Positions 472-34,285 of a stretch of DNA of 64,000 nt are shown here, piece by piece. The stretch lies in contig JAJYLD010000001.1 of NCBI GenBank assembly GCA_021788015.1, positions 273,581-337,580 of the forward strand, in the 5' to 3' direction. The position numbers were made by a program, and so were the translations under genes. The stretch is from a bacterium. GTDB lineage: Bacteria > Patescibacteriota > Patescibacteriia > Patescibacteriales > JAKAJF01. The number at the start of each line of letters is the position of its first letter. The first letter of the stretch is position 1. The notes beneath the pieces are model-generated. The model saw only the letters and a program-made list of their open reading frames with translations. It was not told the origin of the DNA and did no database searches.

Positions 472-500
472 TTGACACAATTTAAAAATAACTATATAAT
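472..500 (+). promoter_or_regulatory. sigma70-type promoter upstream of infA
   Basis: TTGACA (472-477), 17-nt spacer, TATAAT (495-500). Confidence 0.6.
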
Positions 501-551: not shown

Positions 552-578
552 ATGCCAAAATTTTTGTTGTTTAATTAA
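552..578 (+). promoter_or_regulatory. 8-codon uORF (MPKFLLFN) whose stop overlaps the infA start (TAATG)
   Basis: The reading frame is ATG CCA AAA TTT TTG TTG TTT AAT TAA. The last A of TAA (578) is the A of the infA ATG (578-580). Confidence 0.35.
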
Positions 579-814
579 TGTCAAAAGATCAGAAAGAAAT
601 TAACTCGAAAGACTTTATTGAAATACAAGGCGAAGTTCTCGAGTTAATGCCAGCCGCCACTTTTAAGGTCCGCCTGATAAACGGTCATGAAATTTTGGCG
701 CATTTGTCCGGAAAGATGAGAATGAACAAGATCAGATTATTGCCGGGCGACAGGGTAAGGGTGGAGATGAGCCCTTATGACTTAACAAAGGGCAGGATAA
801 CTTACAGACTGTAA
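578..814 (+). CDS. infA: translation initiation factor IF-1
   Basis: 78 aa with an S1-like fold sequence ([56 protein letters not shown]). Confidence 0.95.
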
Positions 815-825
815 TTTAATTTATG

Positions 826-946
826 AATCCCGTCTAGAAGCCGCGATCGCTTCAATGGGAATGAGATTGAGATCGCAAATTTAAAAAATTATGCAGGTCG
901 ATGCGAATCAAAAAAAATTTGATCGCGATCTGCTTCTAATGGGATG
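826..946. repeat. start-codon-docked palindromic element, copy 1 (121 nt, candidate non-autonomous mobile element)
   Basis: Arms are CCCGTCTAGAAGC-CGCGATC ... GATCGCG-ATCT-GCTTCTAATGGG. It is preceded by TATG (822-825) and ends with the ATG of rpmJ (944-946). Confidence 0.85.
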
Positions 947-1057
947 AAAGTAAGAGCTTCGGTAAAAAAACTTTGTAAAGATTGCAAAACGATTCGACGC
1001 AAAGGTCGAGTTCATGTTATTTGTAAAAATCCAAAACATAAACAAAGACAAGGGTAA
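944..1057 (+). CDS. rpmJ: 50S ribosomal protein L36 (below the ORF-track size cutoff)
   Basis: Translates to [37 protein letters not shown]. It sits in the classic position between infA and rpsM. Confidence 0.9.
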
Positions 1058-1062
1058 AAATA

Positions 1063-1292
1063 AAATTCTAAGCACTAATCTCTAAATCCTAAATTCACCC
1101 CGGCACCTTCAAGATTTTATTCCCGAATAAGTTATTTCCAAACCTTGAGTTTTAAAAAACCAAAATTTTGTTTTTAATACGAAAAGGCGCGGGGCAAGAA
1201 TCCAAAATTATAAATCCGAATGGCGAAACGTTTTGAATTTTAGTTTTTGTCATTGAGATGTTTAGAATTTAGAAGTTAGGATTTAGGATTTT
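1063..1292. repeat. long AT-rich hairpin element with TCTAAAT-type word arms (family 4, copy a)
   Basis: Left arm aaattctaagcactaatctctaaatcctaaattc pairs with right arm tttagaatttagaagttaggatttaggatttt. Related copies are at 2385, 40161 and 62943. Confidence 0.7.
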
Positions 1293-1300
1293 AAAAATAT

Positions 1301-1693
1301 ATGGCAGTAAGAATCGCGGGAGTGACAATTCCAAATGAAAAAAGGGTCGAGATCGCTTTGACTTATATTTTTGGAATTGGCATGGCAAAATCAAGCCAAG
1401 TTTTAAAACAAGCCAAAGTCAATCCAGACACTCGCGTTAAAGATTTAACCGAAGAAGAATCGAACAGGCTTAGAGAACTTATCGAAAAACATAACATGGT
1501 TGAGGGTGATCTGAAAAGAGAAATTTTAAGCAATGTAAAACGTTTGAAAGAAATCGGTTCTTATCGGGGCTCGAGACATGCGAAGGGTTTGCCGGTCAGA
1601 GGCCAAAGGACAAAGACCAATAATAGAACAGTGCGCGGAAACGTCAGAAAGACGGCCACGTCGGGAAAGAAACCGCCGGCGCAAAAAACATAA
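1301..1693 (+). CDS. rpsM: 30S ribosomal protein S13
   Basis: [27 protein letters not shown]... with a basic C-terminus; operon context supports the call. Confidence 0.95.
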
Positions 1694-1696
1694 AAA

Positions 1697-1831
1697 ACAC
1701 GAAAGAAACGGATAGGCACGCGAATAAAAACGAAAGATAGTGCGAACTTCGATTTCTGGACAGTGTTTTTAATAAATTTAAAGCTAGTTTTTAATTCGTT
1801 AAGTTTCGTGATCATATTCGTTTAATTCGTG
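1697..1831. repeat. ACGAA-word hairpin element (family 5, copy a)
   Basis: Ends cacgaaagaaacgg / cgtttaattcgtg are inverted. The 3' block ttttaattcgttaagtttcgtgatcatattcgtttaatt recurs at 9786-9824. Confidence 0.7.
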
Positions 1832-1841
1832 TTTAATTATT

Positions 1842-2378
1842 ATGACTGAAGAAAAAAATATTGAAAGAGAAACCAATGAAGTAATAAAAGCGGAAGAACC
1901 CGCCAAATTTGTTGATTCTGAAGCGGAAAGTACTCCAGAAGAATTGCCGGAAGAAGTAAAGAAGAAACTAGAAAAAGCGAAGACGGAAAAAACTCCGGTC
2001 AAAGGCAAGAGGAAGAAAAGGGGAGAGAAGAAAGTTTCAAGTGGCAAGGCATACATTAAAGCGACTTATAATAATACCATTGTTTCTTTGGCGGATATGA
2101 ACGGAAATACGGTTTCTTGGGCGAGCGCAGGGATGGCCGGCTTCAAGGGCGCGAAGAAATCAACTCCTTACGCCGCTTCGATCGTTACGAGAATCGCCGT
2201 TGAAAAAGCGAAAGAATACGGGCTTAAAGAAGTTATGGTTTTTGTTAAAGGAGTCGGAACCGGCCGAGAATCGGCAGTTCGCGCTTTAAACGCAAACGGC
2301 TTGATAGTCACGCAAATTAAGGATGTTACCTCGATGCCTCATAATGGTTGTCGTCCGAAAAAACCGAGAAGAGTATAA
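1842..2378 (+). CDS. rpsK: 30S ribosomal protein S11 with ~55-aa acidic/lysine-rich N-terminal extension
   Basis: The core is [45 protein letters not shown]. The N-terminal part is E/K-rich low complexity. Confidence 0.9.
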
Positions 2379-2384
2379 TTAAAA

Positions 2385-2482
2385 AAATTAGAAGCATAAA
2401 ATTCTAAATCCCAAACAATTCTAAAATTCAAATGGACAAAATAAAAATATTTTTAATTTAGATATTAGAATTTAGGAATTTT
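2385..2482. repeat. AT-rich word-arm hairpin (family 4, copy b)
   Basis: aaattagaagcataaaattctaaatcc ... ttagatattagaatttaggaatttt fills the rpsK-rpsD spacer. Confidence 0.65.
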
Positions 2483-2490
2483 AAATATTT

Positions 2491-3120
2491 ATGGCAAAAA
2501 ATTTGATACCACAATGCAAACAGTGCCGAAGAGCGGGACAAAAGTTATTTCTCAAAGGCGAGCGCTGTTACTCGCAAAAATGTGAAATAGTAAAAAGAAA
2601 TTATCCGCCCGGAATCCATGGCGTAAAAGGTAAAAAGAGACAAAGCGAATACGGCATGCAATTGCAGGAAAAGCAAAACGCGAAAAAGGAATACGGCCTT
2701 TTGGAAAAACAGTTCCGTTTAACTTTTGAAAAAGCGAAAAGGGAACAGGGTCAGGCCGGTGAAAATCTGCTTAAGTTGCTTGAAACGAGATTGGACAATG
2801 CCATTTACCGTTTGGGGATCGCCGCCAATCGCAATCAGGCCAGACAGATTATCGGCCACGGCCACATCGTGGTCAATGACAAAAAAGTAAACATTCCTTC
2901 ATTTCAACTTAAGTCGGGTGATGTTATAAAAATAAAACCGGCCAGCAAAAAATCGAAATTGTTTTCGGATTTGGAGACAAAACTTAAAAAAACGCAAATC
3001 CCGGGCTGGTTGAATTTTGACGTTAAGGAATCTACGGCTAAAATTTTGCACCGACCGAATATGGACGACATTAAAACCAATATCAATGTTCAGATGATCG
3101 TTGAATATTATTCAAAGTAA
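2491..3120 (+). CDS. rpsD: 30S ribosomal protein S4
   Basis: N-terminal CKQCRR...C..KC zinc-ribbon-like segment and an S4 domain (RLDNAIYRLGIAANRNQARQIIGHGHIVVN). Confidence 0.95.
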   Translation: MAKNLIPQCKQCRRAGQKLFLKGERCYSQKCEIVKRNYPPGIHGVKGKKRQSEYGMQLQEKQNAKKEYGLLEKQFRLTFEKAKREQGQAGENLLKLLETRLDNAIYRLGIAANRNQARQIIGHGHIVVNDKKVNIPSFQLKSGDVIKIKPASKKSKLFSDLETKLKKTQIPGWLNFDVKESTAKILHRPNMDDIKTNINVQMIVEYYSK

Positions 3121-3221
3121 AATAAAAATGAGCCCGCTGTCGTCTGCCTGTCCGGTAGGCGGGGCGTGGACAAGGAGTCCCATCAGATATTTTTTGTTCT
3201 TGCATCATATCTTTTTAAACG

Positions 3222-3278
3222 GAATCCGCATTTAGATAATTCTAGGCATATTTAACACGGAATATCTAATCGGGATTC
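3222..3278. repeat. imperfect hairpin in rpsD-rpoA spacer
   Basis: GAATCCGCATTTAGATA (3222-3238) pairs with TATCTAATCGGGATTC (3263-3278). Confidence 0.55.
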
Positions 3279-3292
3279 ATAATATTTAAAAT

Positions 3293-4111
3293 ATGCAAAC
3301 AATCGCTTTACCTAAGAAAATCGAATTTAAAAAAGGCGAGGAGCCGAATCGCGGTTCAATCATTATAGAGCCTTGCTATCCCGGTTACGGGACCACTTTG
3401 GGTAATTCATTGCGACGCGTTTTGATTTCGTCTTTGCCGGGAGCGGCCGTAGTCGGGGTAAAAATAAAAGGAGCCGACCACGAATTTACAGCCATCCCGC
3501 ATATCAAAGAAGATGTCTTGGAAATTATTTTAAATTTAAAGCAACTGCGCTTAAAGGTTTATAGTGAAGAGATCGTGAAATTAAACTTGGAAGTTCATGG
3601 CGAAAAAGAAGTGAAAGCGAGTGATATCGAAAAAAACAGCGAAGTTGAAATTATCAATAAAAATTTGGTTATCGCTCACATAACCGATATGGCCGGCAGT
3701 TTAAGCATGGAAGTTTACGTCTCGCAGGGCCGAGGCTACGAAACCATAGAGGCAAGAGAGACAAAAAAGCACGAAATCGGCTATATCGAGATGGATTCAA
3801 TTTTTTCTCCGGTATTTTCCGTCGGAGTTAATATTGAAAATGTTCGCGTCGGAAAAATGACCAACTGGGATAAATTAATCTTGGATATAACCACGGACGG
3901 CACTATCGCCCCGAAAGAAGCGTTTAATCAGGCCGTTGAAATTTTAATCAACCAATTCACCTCTTTAAAAACTATTGAGGAGGGCGAAGCGATTGAAGAA
4001 AAAAAAGAAGAAGTTGAAGAACCGGTTGAAGAAACGAAGGCGAAAGAGGAAGAAAAAGAAGAGATCGGAGTCGGGGAAAAGAAAAAAAGAGGCCGACCGA
4101 AAAAGGTTTAA
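3293..4111 (+). CDS. rpoA: RNA polymerase alpha subunit, N-terminal domain plus acidic linker and KRGRPKK tail (no recognisable alpha-CTD)
   Basis: The alpha-NTD sequence is present (GTTLGNSLRRVLISSLPGAAV..). The protein is only 272 aa and the last ~45 aa are E/K-rich, ending GEKKKRGRPKKV. Confidence 0.85.
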   Translation: MQTIALPKKIEFKKGEEPNRGSIIIEPCYPGYGTTLGNSLRRVLISSLPGAAVVGVKIKGADHEFTAIPHIKEDVLEIILNLKQLRLKVYSEEIVKLNLEVHGEKEVKASDIEKNSEVEIINKNLVIAHITDMAGSLSMEVYVSQGRGYETIEARETKKHEIGYIEMDSIFSPVFSVGVNIENVRVGKMTNWDKLILDITTDGTIAPKEAFNQAVEILINQFTSLKTIEEGEAIEEKKEEVEEPVEETKAKEEEKEEIGVGEKKKRGRPKKV

Positions 4112-4116
4112 ATCTG

Positions 4117-4226
4117 GTCATGCTGGAGGGAACCACGAGTCTTCGGGACGACCGATAGCATTTCGCACCACGAGATCCTATCCCCCGGATCAAGCCCGGG
4201 GCTAAAGGCAATCGCTCCAGGATGAC
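4117..4226. repeat. GTCAT-TIR hairpin element (family 2, copy A, MITE-like)
   Basis: Ends are GTCATGCTGGAG ... CTCCAGGATGAC. The nested hairpin GATAGCATTTCG/CGAGATCCTATC is shared with the copies at 4939 and 34948. Confidence 0.85.
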
Positions 4227-4234
4227 ATAACTAT

Positions 4235-4585
4235 ATGCGACACAGAGTAAAAGGAAAAATTTTAGACAGAAAAAAAGAACCGAGAGAAATGATGTTAAAA
4301 AATTTGGCATCAAGCGTTTTGATATACGAAAAAGTAAAGACGACCGAAGCGAAAGCGAAAGCGGTAAGAACTTTGGTTGAACGGGCGATTACGACTTCAA
4401 AGAAAGGCGATCTGAACGCGCGTAGAAAATTAATCGCAACTTTGCCGCAAAAAATGGCCGTAAAAAAAGCCATGGAAGTTTTGGGCAAGCGCTATGAAGA
4501 AAGAAATGGCGGCTACACGCGAATGGTTAAGTTGGGCGTAAGACCGGGAGACGGCGCCGAGATTGTTCAAATTGAATTAGTATAA
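4235..4585 (+). CDS. rplQ: 50S ribosomal protein L17
   Basis: MRHRVKGKILDRKKEPREMMLKNLASSVLIYEKVKTTEAKAKAVR...; operon position supports the call. Confidence 0.9.
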   Translation: MRHRVKGKILDRKKEPREMMLKNLASSVLIYEKVKTTEAKAKAVRTLVERAITTSKKGDLNARRKLIATLPQKMAVKKAMEVLGKRYEERNGGYTRMVKLGVRPGDGAEIVQIELV

Positions 4586-4595
4586 ATTATTTTGT

Positions 4596-4934
4596 ATGAC
4601 AAGAAAATTACATAAAATCGACGCGACAAACAAATCAGTGGGTCGATTGGCGACACAAATCGCCGTTCTTTTGCGCGGAAAAGACAAGCCGGAATTCGAA
4701 CCGCATAAAGACGATGGCGACATTGTCGAAGTTGCAAATATTAAAGATGTAAAATTTACGGGGAAAAAAATTGAGCAGAAAAAATATTTTAGCTATTCCG
4801 GCTATCCGGGCGGGTTGAAAGAAAAAAAGATAAAAAGTTTAAAACCGGAAGAAATTTTATTCCGAGCCGTCCGCGAAATGCTTCCCGATAACAGGTTGCG
4901 AAATGGAATGCTCAAGAGATTAATCATTAAATAG
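4596..4934 (+). CDS. rplM: 50S ribosomal protein L13 (short form, 112 aa)
   Basis: KIDATNKSVGRLATQIAVLLRGKDKPEFEPH..GD.V.V.N; followed by rpsI as in most bacteria. Confidence 0.85.
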   Translation: MTRKLHKIDATNKSVGRLATQIAVLLRGKDKPEFEPHKDDGDIVEVANIKDVKFTGKKIEQKKYFSYSGYPGGLKEKKIKSLKPEEILFRAVREMLPDNRLRNGMLKRLIIK

Positions 4935-4938
4935 AAGT

Positions 4939-5020
4939 GTCATACCGGAGGGAGTTCTGGACTCGGGACGACCTATAGCATCTCGCACCACGAGATCCTA
5001 TCGCTTCGCTCCAGGATGAC
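4939..5020. repeat. GTCAT-TIR hairpin element (family 2, copy B)
   Basis: GTCATACCGGAG ... CTCCAGGATGAC, 82 nt, same orientation as copy A. Confidence 0.85.
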
Positions 5021-5027
5021 TATTTAT

Positions 5028-5483
5028 ATGCCAACAGCAAAAAAGACAACTGAAGAGAAATTAAAAAAACCGGAGATCAAAGAAGAAGTAAAATTCAAAG
5101 GTAAATATACTGAAGCGGTCGGAAAAAGAAAAACCGCATCCGCCACGGTCAGACTGTATAAAAACGGAAACGGCAATATAATCGTGAACGGAATGAAAAT
5201 TAACCAATATTTTACGAATGAATTGGCGGCGGTCGCAACTCAGCCGATTAAATTGATCGGCGCCAAAGAGGCTAATTTTTCGGTTGTGGTTCGAGGCGGC
5301 GGAAAGAGCGGCCAGGCCGACGCGGTAAAGTTGGGCATCTCTCGAGTTTTGATAAAATCGGATAAAGATTTGAAAACGACTTTAAAAGCAAAAGATTTTT
5401 TAACTCGGGACTCAAGAAAGAAGGAAAGAAAGAAACCGGGCTTGAAACGAGCGAGAAGGGCCCCGCAATGGAGCAAACGTTAA
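5028..5483 (+). CDS. rpsI: 30S ribosomal protein S9 with ~25-aa K/E-rich N-terminal extension
   Basis: Core is GKRKTASATVRLY...GGGKSGQADAVKLGISRVL...RRAPQWSKR. The ORF-track start at 5016 lies inside the repeat, so ATG 5028 is preferred. Confidence 0.9.
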   Translation: MPTAKKTTEEKLKKPEIKEEVKFKGKYTEAVGKRKTASATVRLYKNGNGNIIVNGMKINQYFTNELAAVATQPIKLIGAKEANFSVVVRGGGKSGQADAVKLGISRVLIKSDKDLKTTLKAKDFLTRDSRKKERKKPGLKRARRAPQWSKR

Positions 5484-5491
5484 GAAAAATC

Positions 5492-5518
5492 GTCATTCCC
5501 GCGAAGGCGGGAATCCAG
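5492..5518. repeat. ATTCCC-N8-GGGAAT hairpin (family 3)
   Basis: gtcATTCCCgcgaaggcGGGAATccag; a related copy gtcATTCCCctacgaaagcGGGAATtcag lies at 19997-20025. Confidence 0.8.
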
Positions 5519-5564
5519 AAGAACGTCTATTCTGTTCAAATATCAAAAAATGTCAGCCAAAAGG

Positions 5565-5593
5565 TTGACATTTTTTGATACTTATGTTAAATA
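5565..5593 (+). promoter_or_regulatory. promoter embedded in a 14-bp perfect inverted repeat
   Basis: TTGACA (5565-5570), 17 nt, TAAATA (5588-5593). The inverted repeat is ATCAAAAAATGTCA (5542-5555) / TGACATTTTTTGAT (5566-5579). Confidence 0.45.
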
Positions 5594-9712: not shown

Positions 9713-9824
9713 CATACGAATAGAAACGAACTGGAATAACAACTTTTATTTTTTAATTTTGTGTTGATGAAAAATTGAGAACTTGATTTTTAATTTGTTA
9801 AGTTTCGCGTTCATATTCGTTTAG
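9713..9824. repeat. ACGAA-word hairpin element (family 5, copy b)
   Basis: catacgaatagaaacgaac ... ttaatttgttaagtttcgcgttcatattcgtttag. The 3' block is ~90% identical to 1788-1828, and both end a few nt before a start codon. Confidence 0.7.
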
Positions 9825-9830
9825 TTTTTT

Positions 9831-25306: not shown

Positions 25307-26444
25307 AGATTTACAATTGTCCGTTATCAAACAAATCGAACTTAGGGCTTCGAGATATCCGGATGTCGTTTCTTTGGCGCAAGGAATCCCGAGTTTTGAC
25401 ACCCCGGAGAGCATAAAAAGACGGGTGGAAAACGCCTTAAAAAGGGGAGTGGTGGCAAAATACTCTTTAAGCCCGGGATTGCCGGAACTTAGAGAATTGA
25501 TTGAAATTTCTCTGGCTCGGGAAAACATGTTTTATGATTGGCAAAAAGAAATTATAGTTACCGCCGGTTCGATTGAGGCCATAACTGCCGCGATTTTGGC
25601 CGTTACCGATCCGGGCGACGAGGTCATAATTCCGGAACCCACTTATACGAGCTATCGCGAAGTTATTATTTTGGCAGGATGCAAACCGGTTTTTGTTCCC
25701 CTTGATGAAAATAACGGCTGGTCATTCGATTTGGACAAGTTTAAAAAAGCGATTACTCCGAAAACAAAAGCGATTTTTTATTGCAACCCTAATAATCCGA
25801 CTGGAACGATTTATTCGAAAGAGAACCTTTTGGGTTTGGCTAAAATCGCGGAAGAAAGCGATTTATATCTGATTTCCGACGAAGTTTATAAAGATTTTAT
25901 TTTTAACGGCGAAAAATTCTTCAGTTTGGCCGAAATTCCGAAATCGCGCAAACGAGTGATAAGAATTTTTTCTTTTTCAAAAGCTTTCGCCATGACGGGC
26001 TGGCGCATTGGTTATTTGCACGGCGACGAATCCGTTGTAAAAGAAATTTTAAAAGTTCACGATTGTCTCGTCACTTGCGCTCCGGTCGTATCTCAATACG
26101 GAGCCATGGGCGCTTTGGAAATGGGTGAAAAAGACGTAAAATTTTTTGTGGGTGAATTTAAAAAAAGAAGAAATTTGATCTGTGAACGGCTTGACAGTTT
26201 AAAAAATATTTTCAGCTATGTAAAACCGAACAGCGCCTACTACGTTTTTCCGAAAATTTTAAGGGAAAACGTTAAGTCTTGGGATTTTTCTTTGGCGCTC
26301 TTGGAAAAAGCGCGAGTGGCCGTTGTCCCCGGTATCGCTTTCGGACCGAACGGAGAAGGCCATATTCGCATGAGTTTCGGCAGAAGCGAGGACGACATAA
26401 ACAAAGCCTTCGATCGCATGGAAAAAATGTATGAACCCCGTTAG
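25290..26444 (+). CDS. class I/II PLP-dependent aminotransferase
   Basis: NPNNPTG and the PLP-lysine region SFSKAFAMTGWRIGY. The last two codons and the stop lie inside the repeat element. Confidence 0.85.
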   Translation: MANRTKDLQLSVIKQIELRASRYPDVVSLAQGIPSFDTPESIKRRVENALKRGVVAKYSLSPGLPELRELIEISLARENMFYDWQKEIIVTAGSIEAITAAILAVTDPGDEVIIPEPTYTSYREVIILAGCKPVFVPLDENNGWSFDLDKFKKAITPKTKAIFYCNPNNPTGTIYSKENLLGLAKIAEESDLYLISDEVYKDFIFNGEKFFSLAEIPKSRKRVIRIFSFSKAFAMTGWRIGYLHGDESVVKEILKVHDCLVTCAPVVSQYGAMGALEMGEKDVKFFVGEFKKRRNLICERLDSLKNIFSYVKPNSAYYVFPKILRENVKSWDFSLALLEKARVAVVPGIAFGPNGEGHIRMSFGRSEDDINKAFDRMEKMYEPR

Positions 26445-26554
26445 AAGCCGCGATCGCTTTAGCAAATAAAAAATACAAATAGGATTAAGATTTTAGTAAT
26501 TTTTAATATTTAATATGCGGATCGAAATGATCGCGACCTGCTTCTAACGGGATG
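26434..26554. repeat. start-codon-docked palindromic element, copy 2 (121 nt)
   Basis: CCCGTTAGAAGCCGCGATCGC ... GATCGCGACCTGCTTCTAACGGG. It is preceded by TATG (26430-26433) and ends with ATG 26552-26554. Confidence 0.85.
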
Positions 26555-32431: not shown

Positions 32432-33697
32432 TTAACCATTTTTTTCTACCGATTCCCTGAATTTTTCCAAAAATATTTTGGCCGAGTGCCGCCTGACCGG
32501 ATGTACTTCCTCGACTAATTTTTCGCTGTCAATCCATTTCCATCCGGAATGATCCCAATAATTTATTTTTATATCCGAATCTGTTCCGGCGAATTCGGCG
32601 ATAAAGAGACCCTGCTTCTGCCCTTTGTAACCCAAAATTCTCATCGCCCGGCTTTCATACTTCCCCATTTCTTTTTTATCTCTGAATTTGTATTTATAAA
32701 CATTTTTTATGGCGCGAACGGGTTTGAATTTTGTCGTGCATAATTCTTCGCGCAATTCTCTTAAGCCGGCCTTTTCTATATTTTCATGATCCGTTCCGCC
32801 TTGAGGAACCTGCCAATGTTCCTCATACCCCGCGCGTTTCACCAATAAAATCTTAAATTTGCCATTTTCTTTTTTGTACAAGACACAGGCCACGTTCGGG
32901 CGGTAGAACAACGGATAAACAAAACGCCACATGATAAAACGATACGGAAAAATTACGGTTGCGTCCAAAATTCTTTTCCATCGCCATGGCTCTAAAATCA
33001 GTCTCCATGCCCATTCCATGCCGAAAAAACGAAAAATTTTCGGAGCGCGTTTCACTTTCCCGGCGATAAAATCGAAAGTTCCTCCGACTCCCATCCCTAT
33101 TTTTACCGACGGCGTTTTTCTTAAATCGTGGAAAATCCATTTATCCTGACGCGGATGCCCGAAAGCGGAAAAAATAATATCGGGGCGCGCGGAATCGATT
33201 CGTTTTATCAATTCTTCATCCTTGTCTTCTCCTTTTATCCATTCCCCCGCTTTAATTTTCCATTCGCCGTGTTTCAAACCTTCTTCCGCTCCGACAATTT
33301 TCAAATCGGGAAATTTCTTTTTTAAATTTTCCGCCGCTTTTTGCGCGATTCCTTTCTCTCCGCCGATAAGGTAAATCGATTTTCCCTTCCTTTCGGCTAT
33401 AGCGCAAATATCATAAACCAAATCGGCCCCGGCAATCCGATCCAATCTTTTGCCCATAAGCCGAGCCGCGAATTTCAAACCGATGCCGTCGGGGACGGCT
33501 AAGTCGGCGGCGTTCAGGATGTAAAAAAATTCTTCATCCTTTTCGGCCTCGATCAAGAATTCCGGATTGGGAGTCACGATTTGATGTTGTCTCCCGTCTT
33601 TTAAAAATAATTCTATTTTTTTCAAAATATCGACCTTGTTCAAGGCGGAGATATTGATTCCAAGTATATTAATTACGCTCATCGCTTTATATTTCAT
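32432..33697 (-). CDS. WecG/TagA/CpsF-family glycosyltransferase fused to a NUDIX hydrolase
   Basis: The N-terminal ~250 aa are TagA-like (VTPNPEF...ADLAVPDGIG...FGHPRQDKW). The C-terminus carries a Nudix box GGTDHENIEKAGLRELREEL. Confidence 0.8.
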   Translation of the reverse strand: MKYKAMSVINILGINISALNKVDILKKIELFLKDGRQHQIVTPNPEFLIEAEKDEEFFYILNAADLAVPDGIGLKFAARLMGKRLDRIAGADLVYDICAIAERKGKSIYLIGGEKGIAQKAAENLKKKFPDLKIVGAEEGLKHGEWKIKAGEWIKGEDKDEELIKRIDSARPDIIFSAFGHPRQDKWIFHDLRKTPSVKIGMGVGGTFDFIAGKVKRAPKIFRFFGMEWAWRLILEPWRWKRILDATVIFPYRFIMWRFVYPLFYRPNVACVLYKKENGKFKILLVKRAGYEEHWQVPQGGTDHENIEKAGLRELREELCTTKFKPVRAIKNVYKYKFRDKKEMGKYESRAMRILGYKGQKQGLFIAEFAGTDSDIKINYWDHSGWKWIDSEKLVEEVHPVRRHSAKIFLEKFRESVEKNG

Positions 33698-33701
33698 TAT
33701 T

Positions 33702-33731
33702 CCCGTCGAAGCGATCGCGACTTCTAACGAG
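33702..33731. repeat. collapsed 30-nt version of the start-codon-docked element
   Basis: The minus strand reads CTCGTTAGAAGTCGCGATCGCTTCGACGGG-aata-ATG (tagA-NUDIX start 33697). It begins 2 nt after the ligT stop. Confidence 0.7.
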
Positions 33732-33733
33732 AT

Positions 33734-34285
33734 TTATAAATTTTTTGTTTCAACAATGGTGTATTCCGGTCCGTTAGCGTTCAATTTCGATTCGATTAAA
33801 CTGAAAGTTTTAATTTCAAAAGTTTCATCCGCAAGTTCATATTCATCGCTTTTCAATTTATAAAAATTTTTCACCCGGCCCAAAGTGATATGCGGAGTCC
33901 ATGCGCGGTCATCAATTTTTATTCCCACTTCTTTCAAATCTTTTTCTATTTTTGCATACAGATCATGAATGGAAGTTCCGTTAATCTGCTCACATTTCAA
34001 AAATATTATCTTCGGCCTTTCCGGACCCGGAAAAGCGTTTAATCCGCCGAATTTCATCCGTGCCGTGCCTTTTGACTTCCAATCGGCCATGCTCTTTTTT
34101 AAAACCCCCAAAATCAAAGAATCTAAATCGGAAATAAAGTGTAAAGTTACATGTAAATTGGCCGAATCCACCCATTTTACACTATTATCATTTTTATTCA
34201 AGTCCAGAATTATATCTGAAATCCGGTCTTGAATATTTTTAGGCAAATCTAAGGCAAAAAATACTCGTTTTAGACTGTCTGACAT
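33734..34285 (-). CDS. 2'-5' RNA ligase / 2H phosphoesterase (LigT-like)
   Basis: Two H-x-T-x motifs: HVTLHF and HITLGR. Confidence 0.8.
   Translation of the reverse strand: MSDSLKRVFFALDLPKNIQDRISDIILDLNKNDNSVKWVDSANLHVTLHFISDLDSLILGVLKKSMADWKSKGTARMKFGGLNAFPGPERPKIIFLKCEQINGTSIHDLYAKIEKDLKEVGIKIDDRAWTPHITLGRVKNFYKLKSDEYELADETFEIKTFSLIESKLNANGPEYTIVETKNL

Follow-up and report, generated by a model that had tools for sequence, protein, structure and literature searches.

In a 64,000-nucleotide stretch of the genome of an uncultured Patescibacteria bacterium (the window; contig JAJYLD010000001.1, positions 273,581 to 337,580), almost every spacer of the operon infA-rpmJ-rpsM-rpsK-rpsD-rpoA-rplQ-rplM-rpsI is filled by a hairpin. 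Our analysis makes it likely that this operon is one transcription unit whose short spacers were invaded independently by elements resembling MITEs (miniature transposable elements bounded by inverted repeats), one of which, family 1, would couple the translation of its host gene. Mobile hairpin repeats are an ordinary category; their density in this ribosomal-protein operon is unusual, and family 1 is a new variant of them. Bacteria of the Candidate Phyla Radiation (CPR), or Patescibacteria, have small, gene-dense genomes with poorly understood translation signals, and here the most highly expressed operon would be tolerating seven hairpin insertions.

Hairpins in the operon spacers

The operon (578–5483, + strand), recognised from open reading frames (ORFs), Pfam context and RpoA homologues, comprises infA (578–814), rpmJ (944–1057), rpsM (1301–1693), rpsK (1842–2378), rpsD (2491–3120), rpoA (3293–4111), rplQ (4235–4585), rplM (4596–4934) and rpsI (5028–5483), all on the + strand. 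In gene order, the spacers measure 129, 243, 148, 112, 172, 123, 10 and 93 nt. Seven of the eight are long, and each of those folds as a near-full-length hairpin, with minimum free energies (MFEs) of −35.6, −51.4, −35.2, −13.6, −47.2, −47.7 and −31.5 kcal/mol, z-scores against dinucleotide shuffles of −2.5, −3.1, −3.2, −1.9, −2.9, −2.9 and −2.5, and right arms whose distances to the following ATG are 0, 7, 7, 10, 14, 8 and 7 nt. A z-score of −2 or lower was reached by 6/7 long operon spacers, compared with 8/25 among the window's remaining co-directional spacers that are 40 nt or longer. These results bear out the preliminary description of this DNA, which had placed hairpin elements from unrelated families in nearly every spacer: seven of eight are occupied (z −1.9 to −3.2), only rplQ|rplM (10 nt) is free, and the occupants belong to at least four sequence types.

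A promoter, TTGACA-17-TATAAT with 12/12 matches, lies at 472–500 (+) and is the sole strong promoter match between 400 and 5900, while folding reveals two hairpins 3′ of rpsI (5495–5580, +). The distal one (5541–5580) has an 18-bp stem, is terminator-like and likely marks the end of the operon; the proximal one, a mini-palindrome directly after rpsI (5495–5514, ATTCCCGC-GAAG-GCGGGAAT), is terminator-like on the minus strand. These are the only terminator-like sites near the operon end. No spacer element qualifies as an intrinsic terminator (GC-rich stem plus U tract), and no operon spacer contains a promoter or terminator comparable to 472–500 or 5541–5580, so we read the region as one transcription unit. 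A promoter-like TTGACG-16-TAAAAT (10/12 matches) at 3017–3044, inside the 3′ end of rpsD, could serve rpoA internally.

Family 1 occupies the infA|rpmJ spacer (828–943, +) and is described in the next section. Family 2, with the ends TGTCAT-N-CTGGAGG...CCTCCAG-N-ATGACA, fills the rpoA|rplQ spacer (4117–4227, +; GTCAT...ATGACA, with an extra inner hairpin CCCCGGATCAAGCCCGGGG) and the rplM|rpsI spacer (4938–5020, +). It is found in both orientations, lying in reverse at 34947–35053 (−) in the clpB 5′ untranslated region, between a CIRCE operator and ATG 35064, and it is also present in the relatives L042 and L049. Family 5 fills rpsM|rpsK (1695–1834, +), where its 40-nt arms (1695–1734 and 1795–1834, AAACACGAA...TTCGTGTTT) form a terminal inverted repeat; a second copy (9745–9826, +) ends 4 nt before ATG 9831, L003 has a further copy between rpoA and rplQ, and L051 has one too. 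In families 2 and 5, the left arms begin 1–5 nt past the stop codon and the right arms end 7–8 nt before the ATG, the geometry expected from insertion into a ~10–15-nt ancestral spacer, and both families are probably tolerated because stop and start codons stay adjacent at the hairpin base. A structured RNA seems a less likely reading of family 2, as far as its few copies can tell: they differ by whole hairpin modules, and the outer stem shows A·C/C·A mismatches, not compensations. An in-frame ATG at 5016, within the right repeat of family 2, could pass for the rpsI start, and the CIRCE operator upstream of clpB (TTAGCACTC-N9-GAGTGCTAA, 34913–34939) is perfect, with family 2 sitting between it and the ATG.

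The remaining occupants are less uniform. The rpmJ|rpsM hairpin (1061–1293, +) has AT-rich arms (1061–1093 and 1261–1293) built of TCTAAAT/ATTTAGA units that enclose a GC-clamped inner hairpin (~1098–1198). Similar AT-rich hairpins lie in rpsK|rpsD (2388–2480, +; 2388–2407, then arms 2417–2448 and 2449–2480) and fill the spacer before a LigB-family gene (40161–40295, +). They had been described as one family, ‘family 4’, a grouping that did not hold up: the three have AT-rich, TCTAAAT-like arms alone in common, at 73–86% identity over 37 nt, and ‘family 4’ is a loose class of AT-rich hairpins and no tight family. The rpsD|rpoA spacer contains a GC-rich hairpin (3133–3168, +), single-copy in the window and matched outside it only over 17 nt in L013, and a long imperfect hairpin whose actual span is 3175–3278 (+), correcting the limits of 3222–3278 given earlier. 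Neither has a second copy in the window. The GC-rich hairpin partly resembles small palindromes nested in family 1 left arms (CTGCCTGTCCGGTAGGCGGGGC).

The families are not confined to this operon. Within the window, families 1 and 2 and ‘family 4’-like hairpins adjoin unrelated genes (aminotransferase, Mur-ligase-like, WecG, ClpB and LigB), and families 1, 2 and 5 recur both at unrelated window loci and in other species, as the preliminary description had required of genuine repeat families.

Family 1 at the start codons of its hosts

Family 1 is an element of ~117 bp with a perfect 12-bp outer inverted repeat inside ~22-nt arms, each of which holds its own small palindrome (GCGATCGC / GATCGCGATC). 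In the infA|rpmJ copy, a variable interior separates the left arm (828–850, TCCCGT(C)TAGAAGCCGCGATCGC) from the right arm (921–943, GATCGCGATCTGCTTCTAATGGG), and the element is flanked by a duplicated ATGAA, whose upstream copy lies at 823–827 (+) and whose downstream copy (944–948) is the start of rpmJ. A further copy (26436–26551, +) follows an aminotransferase gene, whose stop TAG it includes in its left arm, and precedes a Mur-ligase-like gene starting at ATG 26552; another (38490–38606, +) abuts ATG 38607 of a 517-aa gene; and a half copy consisting of the left arm only (33699–33742, −) lies just upstream of the start of a WecG-family gene at 33697. At the copy 38490–38606, the upstream duplicated ATG (38485) stands 8 nt past a TATAAT box, both within 38471–38487.

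Scanning metagenomes with the right arm (GATCGCGANCTGCTTCTAANGGG) located exact matches to it on at least 120 contigs, and all family-wide counts given here rest on the matches listed in that scan. The right arm is followed directly by an ATG opening an ORF in 116/123 listed matches, and the orientation relative to the host gene is nearly fixed (116:3); given symmetric outer repeats, whatever makes the element asymmetric must reside in its interior or inner arms. Hosts are diverse, amounting to at least ~90 genes that include those for L2, L9, L10, L22, L27, L35, L36, S8, NusA, SSB, MurG, ArgRS and ThrRS, and the named organisms with family 1 are Candidatus Azambacteria and ‘Patescibacteria group’ bacteria. 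The left arm, which lay outside the search pattern, reaches 90% conservation or more across the 99 unique copies listed. The interiors of ~70 nt are almost unalignable, forming 61 similarity clusters among the matches listed, and the arm cores are uniformly 101–107 nt apart. Small GC-rich palindromes (GCCTGCCTGCCGGCAGGCAGGC-like) are nested in the left arms of L089, L113, L130 and L198. Viral contigs contained neither family 1 nor family 2, plasmid and phage collections gave no match to family 1, and our literature search found no description of the family 1 arm sequences or of CPR intergenic repeats. Family 1 is apparently a widespread and hitherto undescribed mobile element.

The flanks of the listed copies read ATG-R-A on both sides, and the two bases after the ATG agree between the left and right flanks in 55/63 copies, compared with 26.9 ± 3.0 (maximum 38 in 5000) in permutations. 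Rare second codons are duplicated as well (ATGTCT, ATGAGT and ATGCGA). The flank repeat thus reads as a target-site duplication starting at the start codon. A TATAAT-like box lies 4–10 nt before the duplicated upstream ATG in 28/83 copies among the matches listed (L083–L202), and about one-third of copies stand 6–10 nt downstream of such a box, so near it that the host genes concerned are probably leaderless, which implies that many Patescibacteria genes may be so. In the genome of the window, Shine–Dalgarno (SD) cores are few, preceding 12/62 genes where the background rate is 9%, and leaderless genes seem to be numerous.

Within the infA|rpmJ copy, a mini-ORF (901–939, +) ends with a TAA at 937–939, 4 nt before the rpmJ ATG, and a second (891–947, +) ends with a TGA overlapping that ATG; the copy at 26436–26551 contains the mini-ORF MRIEMIATCF*. 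Across the listed copies, the frame that closes at the right-arm TAA (UAA-CGGG-AUG) is free of stops much more frequently than either other frame. A coupled mini-ORF, defined as ATG-initiated, at least 10 codons long and ending with a TAA 4 nt before or a TGA overlapping the host ATG, is present in 66/99 listed copies, compared with 21.5 ± 3.9 (maximum 39) when interiors are shuffled and 32 when they are reverse-complemented. Even among listed interiors without detectable similarity to any other, 36/53 have a mini-ORF, and the encoded peptides are not conserved, save for the arm-encoded tail. In 97/99 listed copies, both A and U of the host start codon are base-paired in the MFE structure. No mini-ORF ending at the next start was found in the other window spacers, and no coupled mini-ORF was detected for families 2 and 5. 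Two other roles for family 1 were considered and dropped. An outward promoter was rejected as promoter-like scores are alike on the sense and antisense strands; an upstream ORF running from the duplicated upstream ATG through the whole element exists in only 14/104 listed copies, and that model was abandoned in favour of internal mini-ORFs.

Together, these data suggest the following course of events. Small non-coding palindromic elements of several families, MITE-like and carrying no transposase, would have entered originally short operon spacers independently, probably by transposition, and would persist because each folds back on itself. Folding would keep the stop codon of one cistron near the start codon of the next, at the hairpin base, with 7–14 unpaired A/U-rich nt remaining before most start codons. 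Family 1 would insert at ATGRA and duplicate this target, thereby regenerating an intact start codon at its right end, where the host AUG would pair into the base of the 12-bp stem. It would usually bring a short ORF running through the right arm, with its UAA stop 4 nt before, or its UGA overlapping, the host AUG. Ribosomes on this mini-ORF would melt the stem as they translate and then reinitiate at the host gene, so that translating the mini-ORF would serve both to unfold the stem and to bring ribosomes to the host AUG, a form of translational coupling. Models of coupling by termination-reinitiation and by RNA unfolding, and their dependence on a short stop-start distance, have been reviewed (PMC12548453). 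We tentatively propose, as an idea that may well prove correct but that we do not yet favour outright, that family 1 is a Patescibacteria-wide start-codon specialist whose own relay ORF unwinds its hairpin and passes ribosomes on to the host AUG lying 4 nt downstream, allowing it to survive before essential genes that are often leaderless or SD-less. The preliminary description had suggested that the hairpins present start sites where SD sites are absent. For family 1, this suggestion gains from the scarcity of SD cores, from the start codon held in the stem and from a mini-ORF that usually stops 4 nt before it; for the other families, it is not borne out.

Several observations weigh against this scheme, beginning with family 1 itself. 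About one-third of the listed copies lack a coupled mini-ORF, including the window copy at 38490–38606, and of 43 MFE structures, no more than 12 leave the start codon of the mini-ORF mostly unpaired. The orientation bias could in principle be mechanistic, not selective. The duplication varies in length (4–6 nt), an unusual pattern if one transposase made it, and no long or autonomous form exists among the 121 listed arm pairs, all at most 141 nt apart, nor was a transposase identified. Beyond family 1, no target duplication is recognisable for families 2, 4 and 5, and the rpsD|rpoA spacer may not be mobile at all, as its hairpins have no second copy. To these are added a possible inflation of some spacer lengths in relatives and a possible local origin of some arms, both taken up below.

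Relatives, rival explanations and neighbouring features

To place the window among its relatives, we measured every spacer in 80 syntenic rpoA loci from species-representative genomes. Each position ranges from ~1 to >400 nt. Median lengths are 43.5 nt for infA|rpmJ, 71.5 nt for rpmJ|rpsM, 82 nt for rpsM|rpsK (where automatically set start positions and a variable rpsK N-terminal extension may inflate some values), 36 nt for rpsK|rpsD, 48 nt for rpsD|rpoA, 22 nt for rpoA|rplQ, 30.5 nt for rplQ|rplM and 15 nt for rplM|rpsI. Fifteen of the 61 complete operons are without any spacer of 80 nt or more, and the extremes are the window and L035, with 7/8 long. The long spacers of the relatives are strongly structured (median z −3.6, 194 spacers), and their hairpins cluster in families that span different spacers in different species. 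The synteny comparison that the preliminary description had called for, to separate insertions from conserved leaders, found the same family at the same position as in the window only in L003, which has family 1 at infA|rpmJ. In 33 relatives, this site is empty and reads TAA-N(1-40)-ATGAARGT; removing 828–948 from the window leaves TAA-TTTAATTT-ATGAAAGT, with an 8-nt spacer resembling these empty sites. Colonisation by mobile hairpin repeats, one of the two readings that had originally been offered, is upheld by this presence and absence across the 80 relatives, by the families that cross species and by the family 1 target-site duplication.

Arm mismatches in 151 hairpin spacers, counted on the mRNA, comprise 234 G·U and 242 A·C. 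G·U is not in excess over A·C, so there is no sign of selection for pairing in the sense-strand RNA. No spacer matched Rfam, either at gathering thresholds or at E ≤ 10, and neither the conservation at the orthologous position nor the covariation of a ribosomal-protein autoregulatory leader was found. These data favour DNA palindromes that were inserted in particular lineages or generated locally, rather than conserved leaders. That the hairpins are conserved cis-regulatory leaders of ribosomal-protein genes, mimicking autoregulatory protein-binding sites at fixed positions, is therefore very improbable and largely refuted already. Such leaders would fit the shared family 1 position in L003, a cluster of similar short hairpins from nine relatives, most of them at rpmJ|rpsM, and the length of the rpsD|rpoA spacer in about one-third of relatives, where it is long, but not the many relatives in which every spacer is short, the unrelated genes that the same families precede (at least ~90 different hosts for family 1), the empty Rfam search or the mismatch counts.

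A later co-option of the inserted elements as RNA signals, either for RNase III or RNase E processing or as 3′-protective stabilisers that set the expression of each cistron, seems to us unlikely. REP (repetitive extragenic palindromic) and ERIC (enterobacterial repetitive intergenic consensus) sequences have such roles in mRNA processing and stability in enterobacteria, and all elements here are inside one predicted transcription unit, form long stable stems and are denser than in the other co-directional spacers of the window (6/7 vs 8/25), the long spacers of relatives being strongly structured too. However, the parity of G·U and A·C leaves no strand-specific signature, family 2 occurs in both orientations, and the sporadic occupancy in relatives means that no such signal is required; a general co-option as RNA structure, which the preliminary description had entertained, finds no backing here.

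Somewhat less unlikely, though still improbable, is that hairpins of the AT-rich kind (those of ‘family 4’ and of many spacers in relatives) are local palindromes, in which short tandem repeats expanded by slippage were symmetrised by template switching. The arms in relatives are often arrays of 7–9-nt units, such as (TTTTCGA)n, (AAAGTTTAT)n and (AGATTTT)n, with examples at L081:3053-3133, L021:5760-5847 and L003:3129-3209, and the TCTAAAT units of ‘family 4’ are comparable. Tandem arms of this kind could arise locally and speak against mobility; the ‘family 4’ copies are alike only in these low-complexity arms, no terminal duplication is detectable, and equal numbers of G·U and A·C mismatches fit a process at the DNA level. 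Yet the same unit types are common to several species and spacer positions, and a local origin is inapplicable to families 1, 2 and 5, whose sequences are complex and specific. Independent invasion by MITE-like elements remains our preferred explanation for the operon as a whole.

Should the proposed coupling be true, family 1 would amount to a portable cassette of natural origin for translational coupling, and it might regulate how ribosomes flow in these reduced genomes. Its position on start codons, in one orientation and with its own stop-start junction, offers a testable handle on translation initiation and coupling in Patescibacteria, and on how a mobile element might be built to do no harm. 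Annotation is affected too: in thousands of metagenome-assembled genomes, spurious upstream ATGs and small ORFs stem from these elements, which also make ‘intergenic’ regions longer.

Some features of the operon lie apart from its spacers. The closest named relatives of its RpoA are from Candidatus Falkowbacteria and ‘Patescibacteria group’ bacteria, at 73–81% identity. The protein has 272 aa and is without the alpha C-terminal domain (alpha-CTD), its Pfam matches being PF01193 and PF01000 only. Its C-terminus (~3960–4108) is an acidic and Lys-rich tail followed by KKKRGRPKKV, in which an AT-hook-like RGRP..KK motif is nearly invariant among 20 relatives; this motif is possibly a substitute for the contact of the alpha-CTD with AT-rich DNA. 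S11 (rpsK, 1842–2378) has an acidic and Lys-rich N-terminal extension of ~50 aa, L13 (rplM, 4596–4934) is only 112 aa long, and S9 (rpsI, 5028–5483) has a Lys-rich N-terminal extension. Near-identical copies of the mini-palindrome 5495–5514, in the form (GTC)ATTCCCGC-GAAG-GCGGGAAT(CC), occur in L007, L008, L023, L046, L074 and L101, sometimes as inverted pairs, and it has a weak, sub-threshold resemblance to Rfam FtrB.

Comparison with known systems

Bacterial MITEs found in transcribed intergenic regions include the Correia elements of Neisseria and the ERIC elements, or intergenic repeat units (IRUs), of enterobacteria. Like the elements described here, these are non-coding sequences of 100–250 bp with terminal inverted repeats and many dispersed copies, co-transcribed with their flanking genes and folding into hairpins, and family 1 shares with them a flanking target duplication. 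Terminal inverted repeats are present in families 1, 2 and 5 and a target-site duplication in family 1 only, and dispersed copies were found along with filled and empty orthologous sites. Family 1 thus has every testable property of a MITE except a known parent element, and we know of no parent insertion sequence (IS) for it. It differs from MITEs in targeting ATGRA at start codons, not TA; in its nearly fixed orientation relative to the host gene; in combining invariant arms with fast-evolving interiors across a phylum-level group; and in its mini-ORF, the end of which falls at the start codon of the host.

REP sequences and REPINs are mobilised by RAYT transposases. REPINs are not known to leave a target duplication and are typically located after genes. 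The inverted-palindrome architecture of REPINs is seen in family 1, which consists of two inverted ~22-nt palindromic arms around a poorly conserved ~70-nt spacer, ~115 nt in total; unlike REPINs, it has a 4–6-bp duplication and sits on start codons. MIRUs of Mycobacterium tuberculosis are intercistronic repeats with small ORFs that overlap the flanking stop and start codons, suggesting translational coupling. Family 1 is likewise found within operons and has a small ORF whose stop abuts or overlaps the next start, but MIRUs are direct tandem repeats of variable number (VNTRs), not inverted-repeat hairpins, and are not known to show a start-codon target duplication, whereas family 1 has just one inverted-repeat unit, whose length is fixed. 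Other candidates were set aside: TIGR-Tas arrays surfaced in the literature search and are unrelated, and attC sites, IS200/IS605-type ends and T4 gene-60-like bypassing do not fit its core motifs, duplication or stop placement.

The ribosomal-protein leaders of Rfam are also structured RNAs upstream of ribosomal-protein genes, but the spacer hairpins differ from them in having no Rfam match, positional conservation or covariation. Family 1 also has a parallel in E. coli rpmI-rplT: the two genes are translationally coupled, and the downstream start is held in a long-range stem that translation of the upstream ORF opens (PMC12548453). In family 1, the start codon is similarly sequestered in a stem and the stop and start codons are close together; the difference is that both the stem and the upstream ORF would be delivered by a mobile element.

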